The notes: a model not told the origin generated them from the letters alone. DNA of 64,000 bases from an uncultured Candidatus Saccharibacteria bacterium (GCA_964406895.1 CAYOTK010000002.1:6004-70003), one strand, 5' to 3'; numbered from the stretch's first letter, positions 1 to 11,473 are shown. Made by a program: numbers and translations.

Positions 1-13
1 CTATGATTAAGTT

Positions 14-2317
14 ATGAATTTCGAACAAAGGGAAGAAAATAACCTTATGTTACCCACTGAAACCACCACTCAAAGACAGAAGGTTTTTATGATGGCCAGA
101 AAAGAAACCGGAGACCAAAAAATCCTAGAGCAATTTACACCCGAACAGCAAAGAGAAATAGAAAGTAAACAAAGAATTCTCTCATCCCTAGCTTATTTTA
201 TTGGTAAAGATTTTAGAATCCCGGTTGAGCTAAATGAACCTGGGCGGGGTTGGCACTGGGATTTTGAACATAATGTTATTCGGATTGATCCTAAAGATCT
301 TCTTGAAAAACCGATGGATTATCTTCGTTTCGTGATTGCCCATGAAGGTGGTCACCGGCGGATTTCTCGCACAGATTTTATCCCAGTCGAAGAGTGGGAG
401 CAACCGGGTTTTTCGGCTTTGATGAACGCGATTGAAGATCCCCGGGATAATAATTTTGTGGCGGAAAATTATCCAAGATTCAGAAAACAAATGGAATTCG
501 CCTATAATTTAGATGAAGAACTGGTAGCAAAAGCCAAAGCGGAAGCCAAAGGAAAGTTGGGTTATCAGCCTAGGTTTATGCAAGCGAGTTTTGAATATAT
601 AAAACAATGGTTTAACGAAAGACAGAATCGGGAAATGAAAATAAGTGAAGATTTGACCAAAGATGTTAAAGTGGTTTTGAGCAAAACTCTCAAAAGTGCG
701 CAAGACTCTTGGTGGCGATACCCAACTAAAAAAGAAGCAGATGAAAGTGAGAAGCTCATTGCCGATTACGCCAAAGTTTCCTACGAAATCAACCGTGATG
801 AAATTTGGCCGGAGTTTAAAAAGTTGGTTGCAATGGATATGCAGGATCAAAGAAGCCAGGAGTTTCTTAAAAATCAGCAAAAAGCTAGAGGTAAAGAAGG
901 TGGTTCGCCTGGTTTACCACAGGAGTTAAAAGAAAAATTGACTCTTGAAGAACAGAAGGCCTTGGAAGAGGCGCTTGATAAAGCCATTGAAGAAGCCAAA
1001 AAAAGACAGGAAGAAGAAAAGGCCAAAGCGGAAAAAACCAAAGAGGCAACGAGCGAAAAATCAGCTGATGGAGAAGAGGAAACACCCGGTTCATTCAGCG
1101 GAAAAAGTGATGATAAGGACGGAAAATCAGAATCAATGGAATCACAAGGGAAACCCGAAGAACAATCAGTCGATGGACAACCTGTTCCGATTAATCTGGA
1201 TTCATTATCCCCGGAGTTAAAAAATAAAATTAAGGAATATGTTGACTCCCTTCCAGAAGATAAGAAAAAAGAATTGACCGAAAAAGCCAAGAAAGCACTA
1301 AAAGAATTCGAGGACAAACTTAATGAAAAACTTCAAGGCAAGCTGATGGAAAATCCAGAAGAGAAAAAGACTGAAGATCAAAAAGCTCAAGAAACGACAA
1401 TCAGTGCTGGGGAGGCAGTGCGAACCGGCCCAAAAAGGGCGGGGGTTGTCGATATTGCCGGGCTAAAAACTTATAAAGAACGTCTTGAGAGAGAGATAAA
1501 TAAAGACGCCAATTTATATGAGGAAATGAGACGAGAGGTTCTGCTTTTGATTGATAAATTAGAGATGGAGTTGAGACAAATATTTGTTGCGCGCAAAACT
1601 CGGGCCTGGAAAACCGGTTTTGAAACAGGTAAAAGGATAGATATTAAGACCAGGATTCAAGAAAAAGCCCAATCTGTTCCTATAATGGAAAGCCGAGCCT
1701 GGCAGAAAAGAGAAGCGCCTCAAGAAAAAGATTACGCAATTTCTTTGCTGGTGGATTTATCCGGTTCCATGTGGCAAGATGATAAAATTAAGGAGACTTT
1801 TAAAGCGGTTGTTGTCCTTTGTGAAGTTTTGAATCGTCTATCTATTAATTTGGAGATTCTGGGTTTTAATGATCAAATGTACACTTATCAAGCCTTCGGT
1901 GAACAGATATCCAATAAAATCCGCGAATTGATGGGTGGTATGATTAAAGAAGTTGATGATAGTCGTTGCCATAGTTGCGGTAATGAACATAATGAAACTG
2001 ACTTGGGTTGGGCTACAGAAATGGCTTCAAAAAATCTGGCTAAACAAAAAGCCGATAACAAATTCCTTATCACCTTATCAGATGGAAAGCTGGAGGAATC
2101 CTCAAAACATCCTCGCGACAAATATAATTTAGAGGCAGTCATCAAAAAAACCGTTGAGGCTACGGATATAAATATTATCGGTTTGGGTGTTGGCCGGGGA
2201 ACTCAGGGAATGAGTGTCTACTATCCCAAAAGTATCGCCAATGTTCAGGTTTCTGAGATGGCCGAAAAACTTTCTGACCTTATCCGTGATGTAATTGCAG
2301 ATTATGATAAAATCTAA
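14..2317 (+). CDS. vWA-domain protein with N-terminal zincin-like HExxH (HEGGH) domain and K/E-rich coiled-coil linker; partner of downstream MoxR ATPase
   Basis: HEGGH motif (VIAHEGGHRR); long low-complexity K/E-rich segment; C-terminal vWA with intact MIDAS (LLVDLSGSMW ... ITLSDGK). Confidence 0.6.
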   Translation: MNFEQREENNLMLPTETTTQRQKVFMMARKETGDQKILEQFTPEQQREIESKQRILSSLAYFIGKDFRIPVELNEPGRGWHWDFEHNVIRIDPKDLLEKPMDYLRFVIAHEGGHRRISRTDFIPVEEWEQPGFSALMNAIEDPRDNNFVAENYPRFRKQMEFAYNLDEELVAKAKAEAKGKLGYQPRFMQASFEYIKQWFNERQNREMKISEDLTKDVKVVLSKTLKSAQDSWWRYPTKKEADESEKLIADYAKVSYEINRDEIWPEFKKLVAMDMQDQRSQEFLKNQQKARGKEGGSPGLPQELKEKLTLEEQKALEEALDKAIEEAKKRQEEEKAKAEKTKEATSEKSADGEEETPGSFSGKSDDKDGKSESMESQGKPEEQSVDGQPVPINLDSLSPELKNKIKEYVDSLPEDKKKELTEKAKKALKEFEDKLNEKLQGKLMENPEEKKTEDQKAQETTISAGEAVRTGPKRAGVVDIAGLKTYKERLEREINKDANLYEEMRREVLLLIDKLEMELRQIFVARKTRAWKTGFETGKRIDIKTRIQEKAQSVPIMESRAWQKREAPQEKDYAISLLVDLSGSMWQDDKIKETFKAVVVLCEVLNRLSINLEILGFNDQMYTYQAFGEQISNKIRELMGGMIKEVDDSRCHSCGNEHNETDLGWATEMASKNLAKQKADNKFLITLSDGKLEESSKHPRDKYNLEAVIKKTVEATDINIIGLGVGRGTQGMSVYYPKSIANVQVSEMAEKLSDLIRDVIADYDKI

Positions 2318-2329
2318 TATAATCAAAAC

Positions 2330-2758
2330 ATGACAAATGTCTCAAAAATGGCCTTATCGCAATTTTTAGCCAGAACCGAAGCCCAGAAGGATATTTCTTT
2401 AGTCATTGCTCAAGACCAAAAAGAACTCAATGAATTCAGTCTTTTTTTGAAAAATGAAGGATTTCAAGCGGCAGAAAATATTAGAACCCTTATCTCTTAT
2501 TTGAGCGACACTTCTAAGCCCGCCAGATTATATGTTTCGCCTAATAAAGATAACATCAAATCTTTCTATGATTTTCTAGTTCAATATCCAACCGGGCAAG
2601 TGGAGATTTTTGACAGTCAGGAAATGAAATCCAAGGTTTTTCAACCCGACTATAACAATTCTACAGTTGTGTTTCTTGTTTCCAAAAAAGACATCTCCGA
2701 ATTTCAGTCGAATAATTTTTCGCTTCTTCAATATGCCGGGATGACTTTTCAAAATTAA
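2330..2758 (+). CDS. hypothetical protein between vWA and MoxR genes
   Basis: 142-aa ORF tightly packed between two operon partners; no recognisable motif. Confidence 0.3.
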   Translation: MTNVSKMALSQFLARTEAQKDISLVIAQDQKELNEFSLFLKNEGFQAAENIRTLISYLSDTSKPARLYVSPNKDNIKSFYDFLVQYPTGQVEIFDSQEMKSKVFQPDYNNSTVVFLVSKKDISEFQSNNFSLLQYAGMTFQN

Positions 2759-2767
2759 TAAATTATT

Positions 2768-4849
2768 ATGAAAACCACAGAGCAACCCAATCCAGTTTTA
2801 TCAGAGGAAGCAATTGTTAAACCAGTTCAAGAGACCGAAACATCTGTCTCGTATTTAGGAGTGACTCTTGAGAAAGCAGAAAAAAAAGAAGGACGTTTTG
2901 TCCCTAAAAAAGAACAATATAAAGATTATATTAATGAAAAATTTTCTCTTGAGCTCCAGCAAAAGATAGCAATATCTTTTCTGGCCGGTGATCCAGTCCT
3001 GATTGAAGGGGGAACCAGTATTGGAAAGACCACGACAGTCAAAAAAATGTGCGCAGAACTTGGTTGGGAAGTCCATTATGCCAACCTTAACGGAGCGACC
3101 GATGTGCAAGATTTGATGGGTCGATATATTCCTAATCCGTTCAAGCTTGATCGGACGAAAATCTCCGATGAAAAATACGAAAAAATTATCAAAGAATGGA
3201 TAAATCACACCGCCGGAATGGATCCCTCCCTTTTGGAGGGTAAGGAATATATTTTTGCTGATGGAAAAGTGACCAGCGGCTTGCGTCAAGAAGAAGGAAA
3301 AGTAAAAGTAATTATTTTGGATGAGTTTAATGCTTCCGCTCCGAACATCCTTATTCGTTTGCACGAAGTGCTGGATGCCCTGGAACGCGGTGGCGATGTC
3401 ACTTTGTCCGAGGATGCCTCGGAAGTTGTTCCGGTCAGTAAAGGAAATACTAAAATAATTGCCTTAATGAACCCACCAGGCAAAGGCTATTTTGGCCGAG
3501 AACCACTGGATCCGGCCCAGCTTAGACGTTGGGTATATCAGAAAGAAGTGACTGAACTTCCTGGTGAGACTTTTTCATTCAGCACTAAAGCTCTTTTTGG
3601 CATACGGTCTGATATGCAAGAAATACCAGAGGATCTTTATCTTAAACCCCGTCAGTCAATCCTGCCGGCCGAACAACTTCAAGAAATCCCCGGCATTGAA
3701 GATATTTTAGCCAAATACGAAGAATTTCATAAAGCCGTTAAGGAATTGGTGGCCACACGAAAAATTGCCACCGATCAACCTCAGCCATTTACTTACGATG
3801 ATCGAGCGGAACCACGACGAGTTCGGGATTTTGTTTTGCGTTTTTATACGGGTGATCTGAATGAGACTTTCCAAGAGGCCCTGCGTTATTATTACCGGAA
3901 TAAGTTGGAAAGCGATGAGGATAAGAAAAAAATCGGTGAGCTTATTGACCATGTGATGCATGTTCCCAAAGAGGAGACAAAGAGAAAAGGGACGAAAAGA
4001 AAAAGCGATGAGAAAGCTAAAGAAGCTAAATCAGAAAATCCAGGCGAAGCCAAGGAAAAAATAGATGCGGAAGAATTGCTGGGTAAAACCGAAGAAGAAA
4101 TCAAAGTCATGAAAACAGCTTTGAGAAAAAAAAGAAAGGAAATTCTGGGTGAGTCTTCTGACTCCGTCATCTCCGTTGAATATAAAAGAAAGGACGAAAA
4201 AGGCGAAGTTGTCAATGAAATTATTAAAATTGATTTTCAAGAAAAACTAGATTCCGCGGTAGATTTTTACAAAAAGCACGATATAGAACTGCCAACAGAC
4301 TTTATTGAACAAATACAAGATATTTGGCAGAGAAATGTTGATAGTATGAAAGAAGCGATAGAAAAACAGGGTTTTGATGAGATATTGTTTATCCCCAGTG
4401 GCTTGGCCGTGCCGGACTTACATACAAAAATGTCGGCTGGATATGTTGGAACCTACCAGGGCGATTATTTTGAAGCGAACGGTTCCTTTTCTGGCGTTAA
4501 AGAAAAGACAAACGATTCAAGAATTATCTTGATTCACAAGAATAACGCTCAAAATTTAGCCGATCGACCAGAATTAAAAGAAACCCTGGGAAAAACCGCT
4601 GAATCTCTCATCAAGTCCGGAGAAACTCTTACTTTAACTGATTATCTCATCTATCAAAAGAAATATTTTGAAGAAACTGGCAAGCATTTAGATGCGAATG
4701 GTTGGACCTGTCTCCCTGGTTCTAGGTCTGGCTCCTTTGTTGTCTACGCCTACTGGGTCCCGGGTAATGGTCGGCTCGTTGTGAGCGCCTTTGCTTCGGA
4801 CGACTCGACTCCGTGGGTCGGTTGCCGCCCCTCCCGCTGTTTCCAATAA
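2768..4849 (+). CDS. MoxR-like AAA+ ATPase (AAA_5) fused to a ~230-aa C-terminal ligand-binding-like domain whose last ~40 aa form DGR variable repeat VR1
   Basis: Walker A GGTSIGKTTT, Walker B IILDEF, MoxR signature ALMNPPGKGYFGREPLDPAQLRRW; C-terminal half paralogous to CDS 5690..6718; ends ...GCRPSRCFQ. Confidence 0.7.
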   Translation: MKTTEQPNPVLSEEAIVKPVQETETSVSYLGVTLEKAEKKEGRFVPKKEQYKDYINEKFSLELQQKIAISFLAGDPVLIEGGTSIGKTTTVKKMCAELGWEVHYANLNGATDVQDLMGRYIPNPFKLDRTKISDEKYEKIIKEWINHTAGMDPSLLEGKEYIFADGKVTSGLRQEEGKVKVIILDEFNASAPNILIRLHEVLDALERGGDVTLSEDASEVVPVSKGNTKIIALMNPPGKGYFGREPLDPAQLRRWVYQKEVTELPGETFSFSTKALFGIRSDMQEIPEDLYLKPRQSILPAEQLQEIPGIEDILAKYEEFHKAVKELVATRKIATDQPQPFTYDDRAEPRRVRDFVLRFYTGDLNETFQEALRYYYRNKLESDEDKKKIGELIDHVMHVPKEETKRKGTKRKSDEKAKEAKSENPGEAKEKIDAEELLGKTEEEIKVMKTALRKKRKEILGESSDSVISVEYKRKDEKGEVVNEIIKIDFQEKLDSAVDFYKKHDIELPTDFIEQIQDIWQRNVDSMKEAIEKQGFDEILFIPSGLAVPDLHTKMSAGYVGTYQGDYFEANGSFSGVKEKTNDSRIILIHKNNAQNLADRPELKETLGKTAESLIKSGETLTLTDYLIYQKKYFEETGKHLDANGWTCLPGSRSGSFVVYAYWVPGNGRLVVSAFASDDSTPWVGCRPSRCFQ
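4730..4843 (+). repeat. DGR variable repeat VR1 (3' end of MoxR gene)
   Basis: ~115-nt match to the TR at 5118..5235; most mismatches fall on TR adenines; GC-rich 3' segment gccgcccctcccgc shared with TR (IMH-like). Confidence 0.7.
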
Positions 4850-5117
4850 TTAGGTAACTTGTAGCTTGGATTTTTGTATTTATTTTTTCTTTTTATTTTT
4901 AACTTCGGCGAGTATGGTTTGCGAGTTGGGAAGCAGACCTGCCGAAGCGCTCAAAAAAACTGAAGACAACCGCGGTAAGGTAATACCTTGCCATATTGTA
5001 AGGTTTTAAGTCGTGAGAGTGATAAGTTAAGGAAACAGCGGTTTTGGGTTGGGAAAGTTGTCCTAATAAATAGAGTCTGGTTTCCATGGATGTAAGGATA
5101 GCCTCAAGCTAAAAGAG

Positions 5118-5235
5118 GGTCGGCTCCAATGTTGTCTACGCCAACTGGAACCCGAGTGATGGTCAGCTCAATGTGAACGCCAATGCTCCGGACAACTCAA
5201 ATCCGAATATCGGTTGCCGCCCCTCCCGCCGTTTC
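5118..5235 (+). repeat. DGR template repeat (TR), rich in AAC/AAT codons
   Basis: Encodes N V V Y A N W N P S D G Q L N V N A N A P D N S N P N I; aligned VR1 and VR2 positions differ almost only where the TR has A. Confidence 0.7.
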
Positions 5236-5664
5236 TGTTTTAGTAATAGACTGTCCTATTTAAATGGCTTGGATGAATTTGTGAAAGAAGAATTAGGATC
5301 TAGGTTCTATATTCAATACAATGATGATTTTGTGATTTCGGATAATTCTAAATTGCGTTTAAAAAAATATTTGCCACGGATAAGAAAACTCTTGGAAGAA
5401 AAATTAGAACTGAAAATTCCGGCAGAAAAAACGTCTATAAGAAAATTGGAGTGGGAAGTGGATTTTCTAGGTTACATTATTTTGAAAGACGCTGTTTTGC
5501 TCAGAAATAAGACTAAAGGCAAAATTTTTGAGAGGTTGAATGAGAAAAATATCAGTTCTTATTTAGGCTTGTTAAAACATTGCAATTCTTATACTTTAAA
5601 ACAGAAGATCATTTCAAATTATAATAGTCAAATAAAGTCTTATGACTTTGAAGGTGATTTTTAA
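5173..5664 (+). CDS. reverse transcriptase, DGR-type, N-terminally truncated (end of motif 4 through motif 7 and thumb only); GTG start lies inside the TR
   Basis: FSNRLSYLNGLDEFVK (motif 4 tail), RFYIQYNDDFVI (motif 5 YxDD), LELKIPAEKTSIRK (motif 6), VDFLGYII (motif 7); a TAA stop lies in-frame just upstream of the TR, so no motifs 1-3. Confidence 0.6.
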   Translation: MNANAPDNSNPNIGCRPSRRFCFSNRLSYLNGLDEFVKEELGSRFYIQYNDDFVISDNSKLRLKKYLPRIRKLLEEKLELKIPAEKTSIRKLEWEVDFLGYIILKDAVLLRNKTKGKIFERLNEKNISSYLGLLKHCNSYTLKQKIISNYNSQIKSYDFEGDF

Positions 5665-5689
5665 TTTACAGTATGCTAGTATTTACGGT

Positions 5690-6718
5690 ATGAAATTTGA
5701 AGCCTTAAAGCCCAAAGGTGTTACGGAAGAACCTGAAGTTTCAGGACTCGAAGCTTTGTCGGAAGAGGAAAAACAAGAAAAAGTCGCTTTAATGAAAGAA
5801 CTTGAGAATCGTATTAAAGCTGTAGAAGCCGGTCTGGCAGACTTGCAAGATGCTGTTACTGAAGCAGAAAAAAGCAATGATTGGTCAAAGGTTTCGTCAC
5901 TAAAAAATATTTTGAAAAGTAAACTGGCGCTCGCCAAAACCGCTCAAAGAAAATTAGAAGGTCGAGAGGAAGAACTTACTATTTCTGCCGAATATAAGTA
6001 TAAAGATGAGAAAGGGAAGGAAATCGCGGAGACGATAGAATTGGATTTCGAAACAGAAATTTCCTCTCTGATTGATTTATACAAGAGGAATGGCATTGAA
6101 GTCCCCGTTGACTTTAAGGAACAAATGCAAAGTCTTTGGGAGAAAAATGCCGATGCTATGACGGAAGCCGTTGCCGAGAAAGGATTTGATCAGGTTTTGT
6201 TTATTCCGGAAAATCTGCCCAAACTCAAAGAGTTAGAGGTTAAAATGACCGCGGGTTATGAAAAAGAAAAAGGCAATAAGACTTATTGGTATATAAGTGC
6301 TGATGATATAAAAGAAACAGCGACAAGGGGAGCCAGAATCATTTTGGTTCACAAGGCTCCGGATTTGACCGCTCACCCAGAACTAAAGAAAACACTGAGC
6401 AAGGAATTCGGTGGAGAAAAAGAAAATGGGAAAGATAATAAAGCGGAGGATTTTATAAAAGACGGCGAATCTTTGACTTTGTCTGAATATTTGATTTTAC
6501 AGAGAGATGTTTTTGAGAAAACTGGTGTTCATCTGGATAGCAAACTAACACCTGATGGCGATTATATTTTCTGGACATGGCTTCCCGGTTCTCAAGTCGG
6601 CTCCTATGTTATCGACGCCGGCTGGAGCCCGGGTGGTGGTCGGCTCGGTGTGAGTGCCCGTGCTCCGGACTACTCGCAGCCGGCTATCGGTCGCCGCCCC
6701 TCCCGCTGTTTCCAATAA
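5690..6718 (+). CDS. stand-alone paralog of the MoxR C-terminal domain carrying DGR variable repeat VR2 (ORF track start 5642; a later Met nearer 5690 is more likely)
   Basis: Aligns over ~230 aa with the C-terminal half of CDS 2768..4849 (YKRKDEKGE.../YKYKDEKGKE..., LTLTDYLI/LTLSEYLI); ends ...GRRPSRCFQ. Confidence 0.6.
   Translation: MKFEALKPKGVTEEPEVSGLEALSEEEKQEKVALMKELENRIKAVEAGLADLQDAVTEAEKSNDWSKVSSLKNILKSKLALAKTAQRKLEGREEELTISAEYKYKDEKGKEIAETIELDFETEISSLIDLYKRNGIEVPVDFKEQMQSLWEKNADAMTEAVAEKGFDQVLFIPENLPKLKELEVKMTAGYEKEKGNKTYWYISADDIKETATRGARIILVHKAPDLTAHPELKKTLSKEFGGEKENGKDNKAEDFIKDGESLTLSEYLILQRDVFEKTGVHLDSKLTPDGDYIFWTWLPGSQVGSYVIDAGWSPGGGRLGVSARAPDYSQPAIGRRPSRCFQ
6595..6712 (+). repeat. 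DGR variable repeat VR2
   Basis: ~115-nt match to the TR with differences concentrated at TR adenines; the same ~50-nt 3' flank (ccaataattagRtaacttgtag..ttggatttt.gtatttatttt) follows both VR1 and VR2. Confidence 0.65.
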
Positions 6719-6940
6719 TTAGATAACTTGTAGTTTGGATTTTGTATTTATTTTCCTTTTTTTATCTTCGATTTTTTTAAAATACATCAGATGTGGTGGT
6801 TGCAAAACTCACAAGTGAATAAAAAGTCACCATATGTTTTATTTTAGAAAAGAATATAATATTTGCGTAAAGTTAAATAATAAAAAATGAAATATTTTGT
6901 TGGATATCTAGCGTCTGAAAAATTATGATAGTATTAATTC

Positions 6941-7438
6941 ATGCAAATCAAATCAACTCTCACCAATCGTTCAGGTCAAGTTTTGGATGTTACATACAAT
7001 GATATAAACGACGAATCAGAACTTGGAAATAGAAAGATAAATGGTGTTCACGCATATTGCTTCTGTGATGGCAAACTCGTTCTTGTTTACGCAGAGGAAA
7101 AGAAATATTGGTCTCCACCGGGAGGAGCCGTAGAAATCGGAGAAAGTATTCGCGAAGCAGTCACAAGAGAAGTCAAAGAAGAAACAAATATGCGCGTTAT
7201 TTCTCAAAAAATCATTGGATATCAAGAAGTCATCGAGCCAAAAGGTATTTCTGTTCAGACACGCTCCGTTTGTATTGTTGAGCCCTACGGACCTTTTGTT
7301 TCTGATTCTGATGGTGATATAACGAAGATTATGTTAATAGTTCCAAGTGATTATAAGAAATATTTTGATTGGGGAGAGATTGGGGATCACATTTTTAATA
7401 GGGCGATGGAAATTGTAAAAAACTATGAACATCTTTGA
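6941..7438 (+). CDS. Nudix hydrolase
   Basis: Nudix box GGAVEIGESIREAVTREVKEETN. Confidence 0.7.
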   Translation: MQIKSTLTNRSGQVLDVTYNDINDESELGNRKINGVHAYCFCDGKLVLVYAEEKKYWSPPGGAVEIGESIREAVTREVKEETNMRVISQKIIGYQEVIEPKGISVQTRSVCIVEPYGPFVSDSDGDITKIMLIVPSDYKKYFDWGEIGDHIFNRAMEIVKNYEHL

Positions 7439-7829
7439 TCAAGTAAAATCATTAAATCTACCACTAGGCCAATATGCAGTCGTTGGTGGTGGTGTTCTGG
7501 CCACTCACGGTATTCGAGATTTCAAAGATATTGATATCCTGATTACTAGAGAGTTGTTTGATGAATTGAAAAAGATAGGTTGGACAATAAAAGTGACGTC
7601 TGGGGGTTCAACTAATGTGGTAAATGGTATAGTAGAAGCCGGTCCAGATATTATTTATTGCAAGAATTATGAACCAGATATTGCGAAAGTTATAAAAGAA
7701 GCTGACATCATTAATGGTATTCCTTTTATGAATTTGCATGAACTGGTGAAATTCAAGAAGGCCTTAGGCAGAGAAAAGGATTTGGTTGATGTAGGGTTGG
7801 TGGAGGAGTATTGGGAGAAATTTTATTAA
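7425..7829 (+). CDS. minimal nucleotidyltransferase-fold protein
   Basis: VVGGGVLATHGIRDFKDIDIL fits the G[GS]...DxD NTase signature. Confidence 0.4.
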   Translation: MNIFDQVKSLNLPLGQYAVVGGGVLATHGIRDFKDIDILITRELFDELKKIGWTIKVTSGGSTNVVNGIVEAGPDIIYCKNYEPDIAKVIKEADIINGIPFMNLHELVKFKKALGREKDLVDVGLVEEYWEKFY

Positions 7830-7859
7830 TTTGAAAGATTAGTGTAATATAATTGTATT

Positions 7860-8297: not shown

Positions 8298-8356
8298 TAA
8301 ATAAAGATTTCAAGGTGAAATAATAAATGATAACTTGTTATCCACACCCATAAATT

Positions 8357-8420
8357 GACTAATTCACTGAATTCGGTATAATTTGGTGATTCAATTCACT
8401 GAATTAGTCATAAAATGGTG
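8357..8420 (+). promoter_or_regulatory. sigma70-like promoter (TTGACT-16 bp-TATAAT) overlapped by two copies of an AATTCACTGAATT operator-like repeat
   Basis: ttgactaattcactgaattcggtataat followed by ...caattcactgaattagtca, directly upstream of CDS 8437. Confidence 0.5.
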
Positions 8421-8436
8421 AATTGATATAATATAT

Positions 8437-9570
8437 ATGACAATATATAGATATTTGCAGGACAAAATAAAGTCAAACATAGGAAAAAGAAAGATACAGA
8501 TAATCTATGGCCCAAGACAAGTGGGCAAGACGACGCTTGTAAAAGAGTTTCTATCTCTACCAAATAGTGTTTATTACAACTGCGATCAAGATGAAACGCG
8601 CCTACTTTTTGAAGAAGCAAATCTAGAAAAACTTGCTACTTTAGTTAAAAAATACGATACAGTTGTAATAGACGAAGCTCAAAAAGTTAATAACATAGGA
8701 TTATCATTAAAAATTATTTTCGATAATTATCCAGATAAAAATTACATTGTCACAGGATCTTCGTCATTCGATTTGGCAAAATCAGTGAGTGAACCTCTTA
8801 CAGGTCGATTTTTTTCTTATACCATGTTTCCAATAGCTGAGATAGAACTTGCAAAAAGTAAGAATCCGATCGAGCTTCGCGAATCACTTGAGAATCGTCT
8901 TATTTACGGTTCTTATCCAGAAGTTATTACCGCAATTGATCTTGAGACAAAAAAAGAAATAATAAAAAACATCACTGACAATTATTTGTTCAAAGACATT
9001 TTATCGCAGGGTGTAATAAGAAATCCTGATGATTTACGAAGATTACTGCAAGCCATAGCTTTGCAAAGCGGCAATGAAGTATCGCTTTCGGAACTAGCTA
9101 AAACTCTTGATCTTGACAAGAATACGGTAAAAAAATATTTAGAGATTTGTGAAAAGCTTTATATTCTTTTCTCATTATCGCCATATGTATCAAATAAGCG
9201 TAAATCAATATCAATGTTAAAGAAATACTTTTTTTATGACCTGGGAATAAGAAATTCTCTGATAAATAATTTTAATCCGATTGTAACGAGGAATGATGTT
9301 GGGTCGCTCTGGGAGAATTATATGATCTTAGAAAGATTAAAATACAATTCTGCAAGAAATTTTGACCCTATGTATTATTTCTTTCGCTCATATGAGATGC
9401 AAGAAATTGATTTGTTTGAGGATGAGGGTGGGGTACTTAATGGATATGAGTTTAAATTTTCAAAAGATGGAATAAATAAAGCGACTAAAGAATTATTTGA
9501 GAATGATATCAAAGGTAAGGAACTAAAGATCGTCAATAGGGATAATTATTCAGAATTTATTGGAACTTGA
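8437..9570 (+). CDS. AAA-family ATPase (DUF4143-type)
   Basis: Walker A GPRQVGKTTL, Walker B VVIDEAQ; length and layout typical of this family. Confidence 0.55.
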   Translation: MTIYRYLQDKIKSNIGKRKIQIIYGPRQVGKTTLVKEFLSLPNSVYYNCDQDETRLLFEEANLEKLATLVKKYDTVVIDEAQKVNNIGLSLKIIFDNYPDKNYIVTGSSSFDLAKSVSEPLTGRFFSYTMFPIAEIELAKSKNPIELRESLENRLIYGSYPEVITAIDLETKKEIIKNITDNYLFKDILSQGVIRNPDDLRRLLQAIALQSGNEVSLSELAKTLDLDKNTVKKYLEICEKLYILFSLSPYVSNKRKSISMLKKYFFYDLGIRNSLINNFNPIVTRNDVGSLWENYMILERLKYNSARNFDPMYYFFRSYEMQEIDLFEDEGGVLNGYEFKFSKDGINKATKELFENDIKGKELKIVNRDNYSEFIGT

Positions 9571-10882: not shown

Positions 10883-11335
10883 TTGAAATACATTATAACG
10901 CACGGTGACAAGGAAAAGGGGCCGGATCCCGAACTGCACATTTTAGGAATCGCTCAGGTCGCCGGCTTGACCGTCCCTGAAGACGTCACGAACGTGATCG
11001 TCGGTACCGGACGTCGTTTCATTCAGACATGGGATACCGTCAAAAAATCCAAGACTCTGAACGTTGCGGTGAGGTACTCTCCGCTCTGCGGCTCCGCCGA
11101 CAGTGGCGAGAAGAGCGAGACCAGTTTCATGGTCACTCTCGCTGATGGAACCAGCGTGGGGATTGGTGACTACGTCGGTCTCATCGGTACTCCCGGGGTC
11201 GACCTCAAGTCTTGGTTGGACTCCTTGCCGGAGGGCACCCTCCTCATCGCCGGCCGAGAATTTCTCGGTGCCATCGGATACACTGAGGGAAAGACCGGCA
11301 CCCTCTACAAGTACAGTGAGGGCCGGATTGTGTGA
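10883..11335 (+). CDS. hypothetical protein in a GC-rich island (weak SixA / histidine-phosphatase-like N-terminus with THG in place of RHG)
   Basis: MKYIITHGDK... resembles the start of SixA-type phosphatases; local GC is far above the flanks. Confidence 0.3.
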   Translation: MKYIITHGDKEKGPDPELHILGIAQVAGLTVPEDVTNVIVGTGRRFIQTWDTVKKSKTLNVAVRYSPLCGSADSGEKSETSFMVTLADGTSVGIGDYVGLIGTPGVDLKSWLDSLPEGTLLIAGREFLGAIGYTEGKTGTLYKYSEGRIV

Positions 11336-11473
11336 GAACACGGGGCTGCGCTCGCCGAATACCGGCGGGTCGCGGCCCTTTTTGATTTTACTGACACTTC
11401 CAAAGATTATTCTGAACTAGTTTGAAAAATTAAAACTGTACTACTTTTCCCAAAAATATGTTAAATTTTATAT

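Follow-up and report, generated by a model that had tools for sequence, protein, structure and literature searches.

In the diversity-generating retroelement (DGR) of Bordetella phage, an essential RNA (Sp) lies downstream of the template repeat (TR) (PMC6182149), and priming involves pairing of Sp residues 47-56 with TR 117-129, starting from Sp A56 (PMC6182149; bioRxiv 10.1101/2023.10.23.563531). In bacteria of the Candidate Phyla Radiation (CPR), DGR targets that match the Midasin AAA ATPase have been described as class UVR4, with their fold left open (Wu et al. 2018, PMC5758913). The same survey discarded over half of its candidate DGRs for premature stops, truncations or poor matches between the TR and the variable region (VR). 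DGR-diversified FGS (FGE-sulfatase/C-type lectin, CLec) domains are also known from the MoxR-vWA 'ternary' conflict systems of multicellular bacteria (Kaur, Burroughs, Iyer and Aravind 2020, PMC7159879). Here we describe a related locus in a 64,000-nt stretch of DNA from an uncultured Candidatus Saccharibacteria bacterium (GCA_964406895.1 CAYOTK010000002.1:6004-70003; hereafter the window, with positions counted from its first letter). Judged from its sequence and from that of its relatives, this locus is a chromosomal DGR of the CPR type, and its cassette is very probably a relic, disabled in cis and recently so.

A repeat search of the window returned an ungapped 117-nt family of three copies, 79-80% identical, with the middle copy as reference. 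Their coordinates fall within 1-3 nt of the TR and two VRs proposed in a first-pass annotation of this DNA.

4727-4843 (+): VR1, with the GC-rich block of the initiation of mutagenic homing (IMH) element at 4824-4837, then TGTTTC
5119-5235 (+): TR, with 25 A, eight AAY codons and the corresponding IMH* block at 5216-5229
6596-6712 (+): VR2, with the IMH block at 6693-6706

Substitutions were counted by the base of the middle copy, which has 25 A and 92 non-A positions in its 117 nt. VR1 is changed at 18/25 A sites and 7/92 non-A sites (Fisher one-sided P = 2e-10), and VR2 at 17/25 and 6/92 (P = 6e-10). This tabulation, suggested in the first-pass annotation, is adenine-specific and close to the A and non-A counts made there by hand (18 and 4 for VR1, 19 and 6 for VR2). 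Among the non-A differences of VR1, three make up the 5' edge of the repeat (5119-5121) and one is an IMH*/IMH marker at 5230. The base bias vanishes when either flanking copy serves as template, which identifies the middle copy as the TR. Nearly all TR adenines (24/25) stand at codon position 1 or 2 of the VR reading frames, and the TR translation, VGSNVVYANWNPSDGQLNVNANAPDNSNPNIGCRPSRRF, bears out the AAY-rich template that had been noted, with its eight AAY codons. Each VR terminates 6 nt ahead of the stop codon of its target gene. The shared GC-rich block, GGTTGCCGCCCCTCCCGC, had been called IMH-like and behaves as IMH/IMH*: it occurs exactly three times in 64 kb (shuffles average 0.01), and GCCGCCCCTCCCGC is present in all three copies, with CGTTTC after it in the TR and TGTTTC after it in both VRs. 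The base at TR position 112 (C5230) separates the two kinds of repeat throughout the nine lineages, as C in the TRs and T in each of the 17 VRs, and is, by this alignment, a conserved IMH*/IMH marker.

The first-pass annotation further placed an RT (reverse transcriptase) with motifs 4-7 beside the TR. RT sequence is indeed found there, but only as the C-terminal 135 codons of an incomplete gene. The open reading frame (ORF) 3' of the TR (5173-5664, 163 aa) aligns to positions 134-205 only of the 205-position Pfam RVT_1 model, and its first 28 residues come from reading through the TR in frame. Homology to the RT of full-length relatives begins at 5257; a chance in-frame fusion of the last 135 RT codons to the TR gives the ORF. 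Motifs 1-3 and the DGR-typical LGxxxSQ of motif 4 are missing.

5257-5664 (+): RT remnant, codons ~209-343 of a 343-aa DGR-type RT, comprising the end of motif 4, motifs 5-7 and the thumb
5256-5263 (-): last remnant of avd, a stop codon and ~2 codons, by alignment to the avd of contig L012 (423-794, minus strand) and to L011
5257-5263 (no strand): deletion junction, a single TATTTAA, present as two copies 983 bp apart in intact relatives

Homologs of this ORF led to related loci on other contigs, which we designate by L numbers. Eight lineages (L008; L009, with L015 and L016; L011; L012/L020; L025; L026/27; L028/29; L030/31) are intact and share one gene order: (a vWA-domain gene), the small gene p142, a MoxR AAA_5 target ending in VR1, a leader plus TR, avd on the minus strand, RT, and a paralog of the target ending in VR2. 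The leader and TR occupy ~390-490 nt between the VR1 target and avd, the RT is 289-345 aa long, Avd is present in 8/8 (as Pfam bAvd), and the named records are Candidatus Saccharibacteria metagenome-assembled genomes. In L011 (ENA ERZ19028406) and L012 (JGI 3300045398), avd on the minus strand and a 342-343-aa RT lie between the TR and the paralog gene, and the paralogs are 84-86% identical to that of the window. The window aligns to L012 in two blocks, 4834-5263 to L012 1-430 (94%) and 5257-6881 to L012 1407-3035 (90%), and TATTTAA at 5257-5263 matches both ends. The window therefore carries a 983-bp deletion between direct repeats, placed identically by L011 and L020 (the three contigs have 90-95% nucleotide identity to the window). 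By these alignments, a single deletion between 7-bp direct repeats removed avd and RT codons 1-208, a microhomology-mediated loss.

Several searches bear on this result. L020 (JGI 3300045395, 13.8 kb) aligns gap-free to window 2-5263 at 94.2% identity, and this alignment breaks off exactly at the junction. Where L020 and L012 overlap they are 100% identical, and the two therefore give a complete intact sister locus. An independent assembly, the Logan contig L010 (SRR12487045), matches window 1-7707 with 100% identity, including across the junction. An exact search for the junction in JGI metagenome contigs gave no match, and the deletion was not seen in any second genome. Searching the 64 kb by tblastn with complete RT and Avd sequences from L012 and L009 detected no further copy of either. 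We also considered whether the RT might be split, its N-terminal half being encoded at another place in the window, and rejected this because tblastn with full-length relatives finds nothing. Of the DGR signature read here earlier, the TR, two VRs, IMH and two targets stand; a cassette able to work does not, with the RT truncated and avd lost.

The lost proteins can be characterized from the sister lineage. Its Avd matches Pfam bAvd and scores 63 bits against NCBIfam DivGenRetAVD, below the 80-bit cut-off. Its RT (L012 783-1814) has LGNITSQ in motif 4. Among solved structures, the closest to it in sequence is 8ub7_A (328 residues, named 'Reverse transcriptase', E = 3e-31); no group II or retron-type RT does better than 1e-20, ten orders of magnitude behind. 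8ub7 presumably belongs to the Bordetella phage bRT-Avd-RNA cryo-EM series.

Past activity of the element can be read from its VRs. Window and sister L020 diverge by 4.4-6.4% in genes and leader and by 25.6% in VR1, with 18/30 of the VR1 differences at TR adenines. Their TRs differ at seven non-A positions (6, 33, 45, 67, 74, 99 and 102), and the VR1 of each lineage has its own TR's state at 7/7 of these. VR1 tracks the non-A states of its own TR; therefore, TR-to-VR transfer went on in the window lineage after the split, and by this record the element was active there after parting from its closest relatives. VR2 of the window differs from that of L003 at 30/117 positions, compared to ~7% elsewhere. 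In the sister lineage, diversification is visibly live at the level of contig comparison: of 1744 nt compared between L003 and L012 (one study, two samples), 17 differ, 15 of them in VR2, and 13 of those at TR adenines.

Signs of decay are seen in the window alongside this history. Its VRs contain five non-A transitions (VR1 G40A and C70T; VR2 G16A, C60T and T97C), compared to four comparable transitions in 15 VRs of intact cassettes (binomial P = 0.002). T97C adjoins the IMH, a spot that any fresh homing event would overwrite. Two changes in the RT remnant are unique to the window, R to Q in the otherwise invariant RY(N/A/C/T)DD and G to E in WG(V/I)DFLGY. The ratio of nonsynonymous to synonymous substitution rates (dN/dS) of the remnant is 0.09-0.14; because it is still low, the deletion would be recent when set against the 5-6% by which window and sister diverge.

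Directly 5' of the TR lie ~215 nt that are conserved even where the proteins of the lineages are only ~45% identical. RNAalifold on the eight lineages yields a multi-helix leader and two long-range helices (H11 and H7) enclosing the TR.

4901-5118 (+): structured non-coding leader directly 5' of the TR, helices H1-H10, conserved in eight lineages
4903-4910 / 4940-4947: H1
4948-4952 / 5017-5021: H4
4956-4961 / 5002-5007: H5
4966-4969 / 4996-4999: H6
5040-5049 / 5101-5110: H8
5050-5054 / 5061-5065: H9
5115-5124 (5' edge of the TR) / 5216-5225 (GC-rich IMH* block): H11
5032-5039 (GAAACAGC) / 5228-5235 (GCCGTTTC, last 8 nt of the TR): H7

For the 64 pairs counted (leader and clamps), 96.8% of cells are paired. 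Double-sided changes occur in 19 pairs, compared to 10.5 ± 2.0 in shuffles (0/500 reach 19) and 1-4 with slid partners. One caveat is that the structure comes from the very alignment on which it was tested and so has an advantage over the slid control; even so, compensated pairs are in large excess. One pair of H11 is G-C in four lineages and A-U in four others. H7 shows one compensatory G-C to A-U change, in L025, and in it an invariant A5037 stands opposite C5230, the sole base at which the TR departs from all VRs. The leader segment GAAACAGC, itself invariant, is exactly reverse-complementary to GCTGTTTC, the form present in VRs. These covariations support a leader RNA that pairs with both TR ends and is intact in the window. 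No structure 3' of the TR is conserved among the intact relatives (consensus energy -0.56 kcal/mol), and the conservation seen there is due to avd coding on the other strand. A single-sequence fold of 4850-5260 is no better than shuffles (z = -1.17), the structure being visible only by the eight-lineage comparison. Rfam gave no meaningful family in 4600-7000 (E <= 1) or in the whole window (gathering thresholds), and ARAGORN found no tRNA. We had considered that the TR RNA might be dead even in trans through loss of a downstream spacer; this was revised, the conserved RNA being upstream and intact.

By analogy with priming in Bordetella, we hypothesize that the polarity of H7 is that of a template-primer duplex, with initiation just 5' of H7. 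Such initiation would explain why the C/T marker is never copied into the VRs. A broader proposal, which we advance tentatively and with some doubt, is a possible permutation, relative to the Bordetella element, within this family of Saccharibacteria DGRs: the scaffold RNA that primes cDNA synthesis and sets its bounds would reside in the ~215-nt upstream leader and not in a downstream spacer. If so, only protein genes went with the deletion, and the template RNA left behind would be complete and mobilisable in trans, making the locus a naturally occurring 'non-autonomous DGR'. The leader RNA offers a testable priming model for CPR DGRs. As the RNA component of the window is complete, trans-complementation by another RT-Avd pair is structurally conceivable.

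Taken together, the recently disabled cassette is best explained as follows. The ancestral layout, shown by the eight intact lineages, is vWA, p142, the MoxR-AAA+ target (VR1), the ~215-nt leader, TR, avd (minus strand), RT and the paralog target (VR2). If the element worked as the Bordetella phage paradigm suggests, RT and Avd would bind the leader-TR RNA, this RNA would be reverse transcribed with random misincorporation opposite adenines, and the cDNA would replace either target's 3' end as far as the GC-rich IMH. Replacement would recode ~12-13 surface residues of a C-terminal domain of C-type lectin/FGE fold. The 983-bp TATTTAA-flanked deletion, evident in the alignments, then removed avd, bar its last codons, together with RT codons 1-208. 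What the window retains intact is the leader and TR, the VRs and IMH elements of both targets, and the two target ORFs. The cassette is now non-autonomous, and its variable proteins are most likely frozen in their last state and starting to drift.

Certain points weigh against this interpretation. The low dN/dS fits a recent deletion and is no independent proof of relaxed selection. The non-A excess rests on small numbers, five events in two VRs, and some non-A changes (T to G) are evidently made by the element itself. Our searches covered 64 kb of a contig of at least 107 kb in a fragmented genome, and a second RT-Avd pair elsewhere is possible. The leader and TR RNA are fully intact, making rescue in trans mechanically conceivable. 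Finally, L010 probably derives from the read set of the window, such that its agreement rules out an assembler-specific error and not a minority variant.

Among other explanations, it is unlikely, if worth weighing, that the cassette is non-autonomous yet active, with an RT-Avd pair elsewhere in the genome diversifying VR1 and VR2 in trans via the leader-TR RNA. The leader, TR, IMH elements and both target ORFs are intact, conserved RNA is found only upstream of the TR, so the deletion took no recognisable RNA element, and several DGRs occur in ~10% of completed DGR-containing genomes (Wu et al., PMC5758913). However, there is no RT or Avd within the 64 kb, both VRs hold ordinary transitions that homing would erase, including T97C beside the IMH, and the RT-Avd of Bordetella is strictly specific for its own flanking RNA (PMC6182149). 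That the deletion is an assembly or binning artefact, the real genome having an intact avd-RT, is very improbable: at 7 bp the junction repeat is far shorter than the k-mers of assemblers, two assemblies are the same at every base of 7.7 kb, and the remnant and both VRs show lineage-specific decay, even though the window comes from a metagenome-derived contig and repeats of the locus give doubtful joins in other contigs (L013, L017).

We give hardly any credence to a complete, working DGR that uses the 163-aa ORF as its RT. This ORF does contain a YxDD box (YNDD) and motifs 6-7, but with motifs 1-3 and most of motif 4 it lacks the fingers and the part of the palm with the first catalytic aspartate, its initial 28 residues are merely TR in frame, and an RT of 289-345 aa accompanies Avd in 8/8 intact relatives. 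It is barely conceivable that the three copies are ordinary paralogous repeats or gene-conversion tracts of no retroelement origin, as might be argued from the paralogy of the targets and from 3' flanks homogenised further than the TR homology extends; the middle copy does not code for protein and lies inside a conserved RNA leader beside an RT, the adenine-specific differences run in one direction only, and the pattern recurs in nine lineages and 17 VRs. A DGR disabled in cis by the deletion thus remains our preferred explanation.

The two target genes expected from the first-pass annotation are confirmed as genes with paralogous C-terminal domains, each with a VR at its 3' end. These genes, their upstream neighbours and the VR flanks are as follows.

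14-2317 (+): vWA-domain protein, 767 aa, Pfam CobT_C/VWA at residues 564-754
2330-2758 (+): p142, a conserved small protein of 142 aa encoded between vWA and MoxR
2768-4849 (+): target gene 1, MoxR-type AAA+ ATPase, Pfam AAA_5 at residues 77-254
5687-6718 (+): target gene 2, the paralog, N-terminal coiled coil and C-terminal variable domain finishing in VR2; ORF alternatively from 5642
4844-4899 (+): VR1 3' flank, stop codon, AATTAGGTAACTTGTAGCTTGG and a T-rich run, common to VR2 and not present after the TR
6713-6768 (+): VR2 3' flank, conserved, homologous to 4844-4899

The vWA gene is likewise upstream in L005, L008, L009, L015 and L020, and p142, which has no Pfam, NCBIfam or PADLOC match, is syntenic in L008, L009, L017, L020 and L025-L030. 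In target 1, the ATPase domain is followed by a charged linker and then by a C-terminal variable domain of ~250 aa that finishes in VR1 and is ~50% identical to the paralog. AlphaFold2 models of the paralog (27-sequence alignment) reached a pLDDT of 84.5, and those of its C-terminal 249 residues a pLDDT of 88.3 and a pTM of 0.89. Fold comparison of the modelled C-terminal domain returned CarF, OvoA and pFGE (listed values 7.1, 7.1 and 7.0) and, among DGR variable proteins, TvpA, Mtd and TaqVP (6.6, 5.2 and 4.5), with numerous animal C-type lectins further down the list. The variable domain thus models as a C-type lectin/FGE fold. This prediction assigns a fold to the AAA-ATPase-linked CPR variable domain, undecided in the 2018 survey. 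Neither target shows an obvious signal peptide or membrane segment in sequences read by eye, which is not a formal test. PADLOC made no defence-system call for vWA, p142 or the paralog, and the MoxR protein gave only a weak mad8 match. By inference, the targets would be intracellular, ATPase-coupled variable binders, possibly sensors of invading elements.

The VR 3' flanks were compared in an alignment of nine flanks. In a given genome, the ~55-75 nt after each VR stop codon are near-identical between the two targets (window 4844-4899/6713-6768; L009 6258-6335/8994-9070), unlike the targets' upstream coding DNA, which is dissimilar. The flank is partly conserved across lineages, as TAGnTAnCTTnTAnCTT then a T-run, and the TR is without it. 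It may be a candidate target-recognition or terminator element, kept alike by gene conversion. Folded as DNA, the 3' flanks of VR1 and VR2 and those of relatives gave no hairpin or cruciform after the IMH better than shuffles (z -1.35 to +0.18). A 5-bp AT-rich stem in the L008 and L009 flanks, weak and without covariation, was dropped as evidence.

Intact relatives also provide a view of how the element edits. Relative to their own TR, their VRs have 9-18 adenines changed and 0-5 other positions (position-112 marker excluded). Of the non-adenine changes, 15/19 are T to G, at sites that recur across independent lineages, namely TR positions 19, 84 and 90 (window 5137, 5202 and 5208), with equivalents in L008, L012, L026, L028 and L030. 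Among 17 distinct T-to-G sites (the window's three included), nine are a T before A, compared to 13% of all TR thymines. From these counts, T-to-G change at TA looks like a secondary error signature of this RT clade.

Other features of the related contigs are worth recording. The 693-aa MoxR/VR1 protein of the sister lineage (P0036) is identical in five contigs, L020-L024 (three JGI samples, two sequencing runs), and VR2 differs between two of the JGI samples sharing it (L003, L012). On these sequences, one DGR seems to diversify its two targets at unequal rates. L003 has an in-frame TAG in its RT (L003 173-175) and is otherwise 99.9% identical to L012 outside VR2. L001 contains a 103-aa RT stump near a contig end (122-433). 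In L005 (8810-8823), the two targets lie 12 nt apart, with no TR, avd or RT between. In L017 (2500-2640), a MoxR-VR gene is joined straight to the VR2 downstream region, a recombination or assembly chimera across the repeat. L008 (5444-6324, ~9030) has lost 1 nt from VR2, and two ORFs have been inserted between its VR1 and leader.

Elsewhere in the window, a NUDIX gene and a 134-aa ORF downstream of VR2 (6920-7831) have a second copy, ~87-95% identical, just upstream of the vWA gene and beyond window position 1 (L010 1-137; L020 4252-5164). The ~7.7-kb DGR block is therefore bracketed by a ~0.9-kb direct repeat, which may mark a segmental duplication or a mobile block. At 8356-8421, just upstream of an AAA_14/DUF4143 ATPase gene (8437-9570), is a tandem, palindromic repeat, TGACTAATTCACTGAATT / AATTCACTGAATTAGTCA (18 nt, 94% complementary, 19 nt apart), which looks like a putative operator. 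The segment 10883-11420 has a local GC of 0.46, compared to ~0.33 around it, and long overlapping ORFs on both strands (10883-11335 +, 10943-11341 -, 11103-11420 +). It gave no Rfam or tRNA match and may be foreign or mis-framed.

How does this locus compare with described systems? Among the hallmarks of DGRs, the window has the TR/VR adenine bias, AAY codons in the target frame, IMH/IMH* and a modelled C-type lectin fold, and it lacks a full-length DGR-clade RT (motifs 1-7, [I/L]GxxxSQ) and Avd. The closest resemblance to CPR DGR clade 2 (Wu et al. 2018, PMC5758913; Roux et al. 2021, PMC8144416) lies in the CPR host, in avd, TR and RT as the sole cassette genes, with avd inverted relative to RT (in the intact relatives), and in multiple targets with C-terminal VRs and an AAY-rich template. 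The nearest described are the CPR DGRs with a Midasin/AAA ATPase target (UVR4) and an avd-TR-RT architecture of type B3; in the window, an AAA_5 ATPase (dynein/midasin/MoxR clade) is fused to the variable domain. The window copy differs in having lost avd and two thirds of the RT. Set against published UVR4 by description and not by sequence, the locus likely belongs to this class; the fold that Wu et al. left open is, in the window, predicted to be FGE/CLec.

With the Bordetella phage BPP-1 DGR (mtd-avd-TR-brt; PMC6182149, bioRxiv 10.1101/2023.10.23.563531), the locus has in common adenine-specific TR-to-VR transfer, a 14-nt GC-rich IMH with an IMH* unlike the IMH, RT plus Avd (in the relatives of the window), and a CLec-fold target with a C-terminal VR. 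In BPP-1, the essential Sp RNA is downstream of the TR, whereas in the window family the conserved structure is upstream, with nothing conserved downstream. Unlike in BPP-1, there is no GC-rich hairpin after the IMH of the window. The BPP-1 target is a phage tail fibre; the element described here is cellular, with two cytoplasmic-looking targets, and its window copy is without RT-Avd proteins.

The MoxR-vWA ternary systems are similar in that a MoxR-clade AAA+ gene (2768-4849) beside a vWA gene (14-2317) is coupled to a DGR-diversified domain of FGE/CLec fold. There, however, the variable domain is usually on the vWA protein, whereas here it is on the MoxR ATPase and on a free-standing coiled-coil paralog. 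Their third component is VMAP (the criterion being VMAP/iSTAND/FtsH/beta-propeller); in the window no VMAP was recognised, and p142 is without a recognisable domain. Their hosts are multicellular cyanobacteria or proteobacteria, and the host here is an ultra-small CPR bacterium. The locus thus links MoxR-vWA modules with DGR-diversified binding domains in ultra-small CPR bacteria, and this suggests intracellular, possibly anti-invader, sensing.

Inactivated DGRs are common, and the window is a case of the degenerate DGRs noted by Wu et al., a real DGR of known kind that has been disabled. The DGR label is right in kind; annotating the locus as an active hypermutation system would be wrong. What distinguishes this case is that the lesion is base-precise, the ancestral state is known, and the event is recent enough for the RNA, TR and VRs to be recognisable. 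Together with its 94%-identical intact sister, the window provides a clean natural knock-out showing DGR loss and what decay looks like at its outset, namely the appearance in the VRs of ordinary transitions that homing would otherwise reset.

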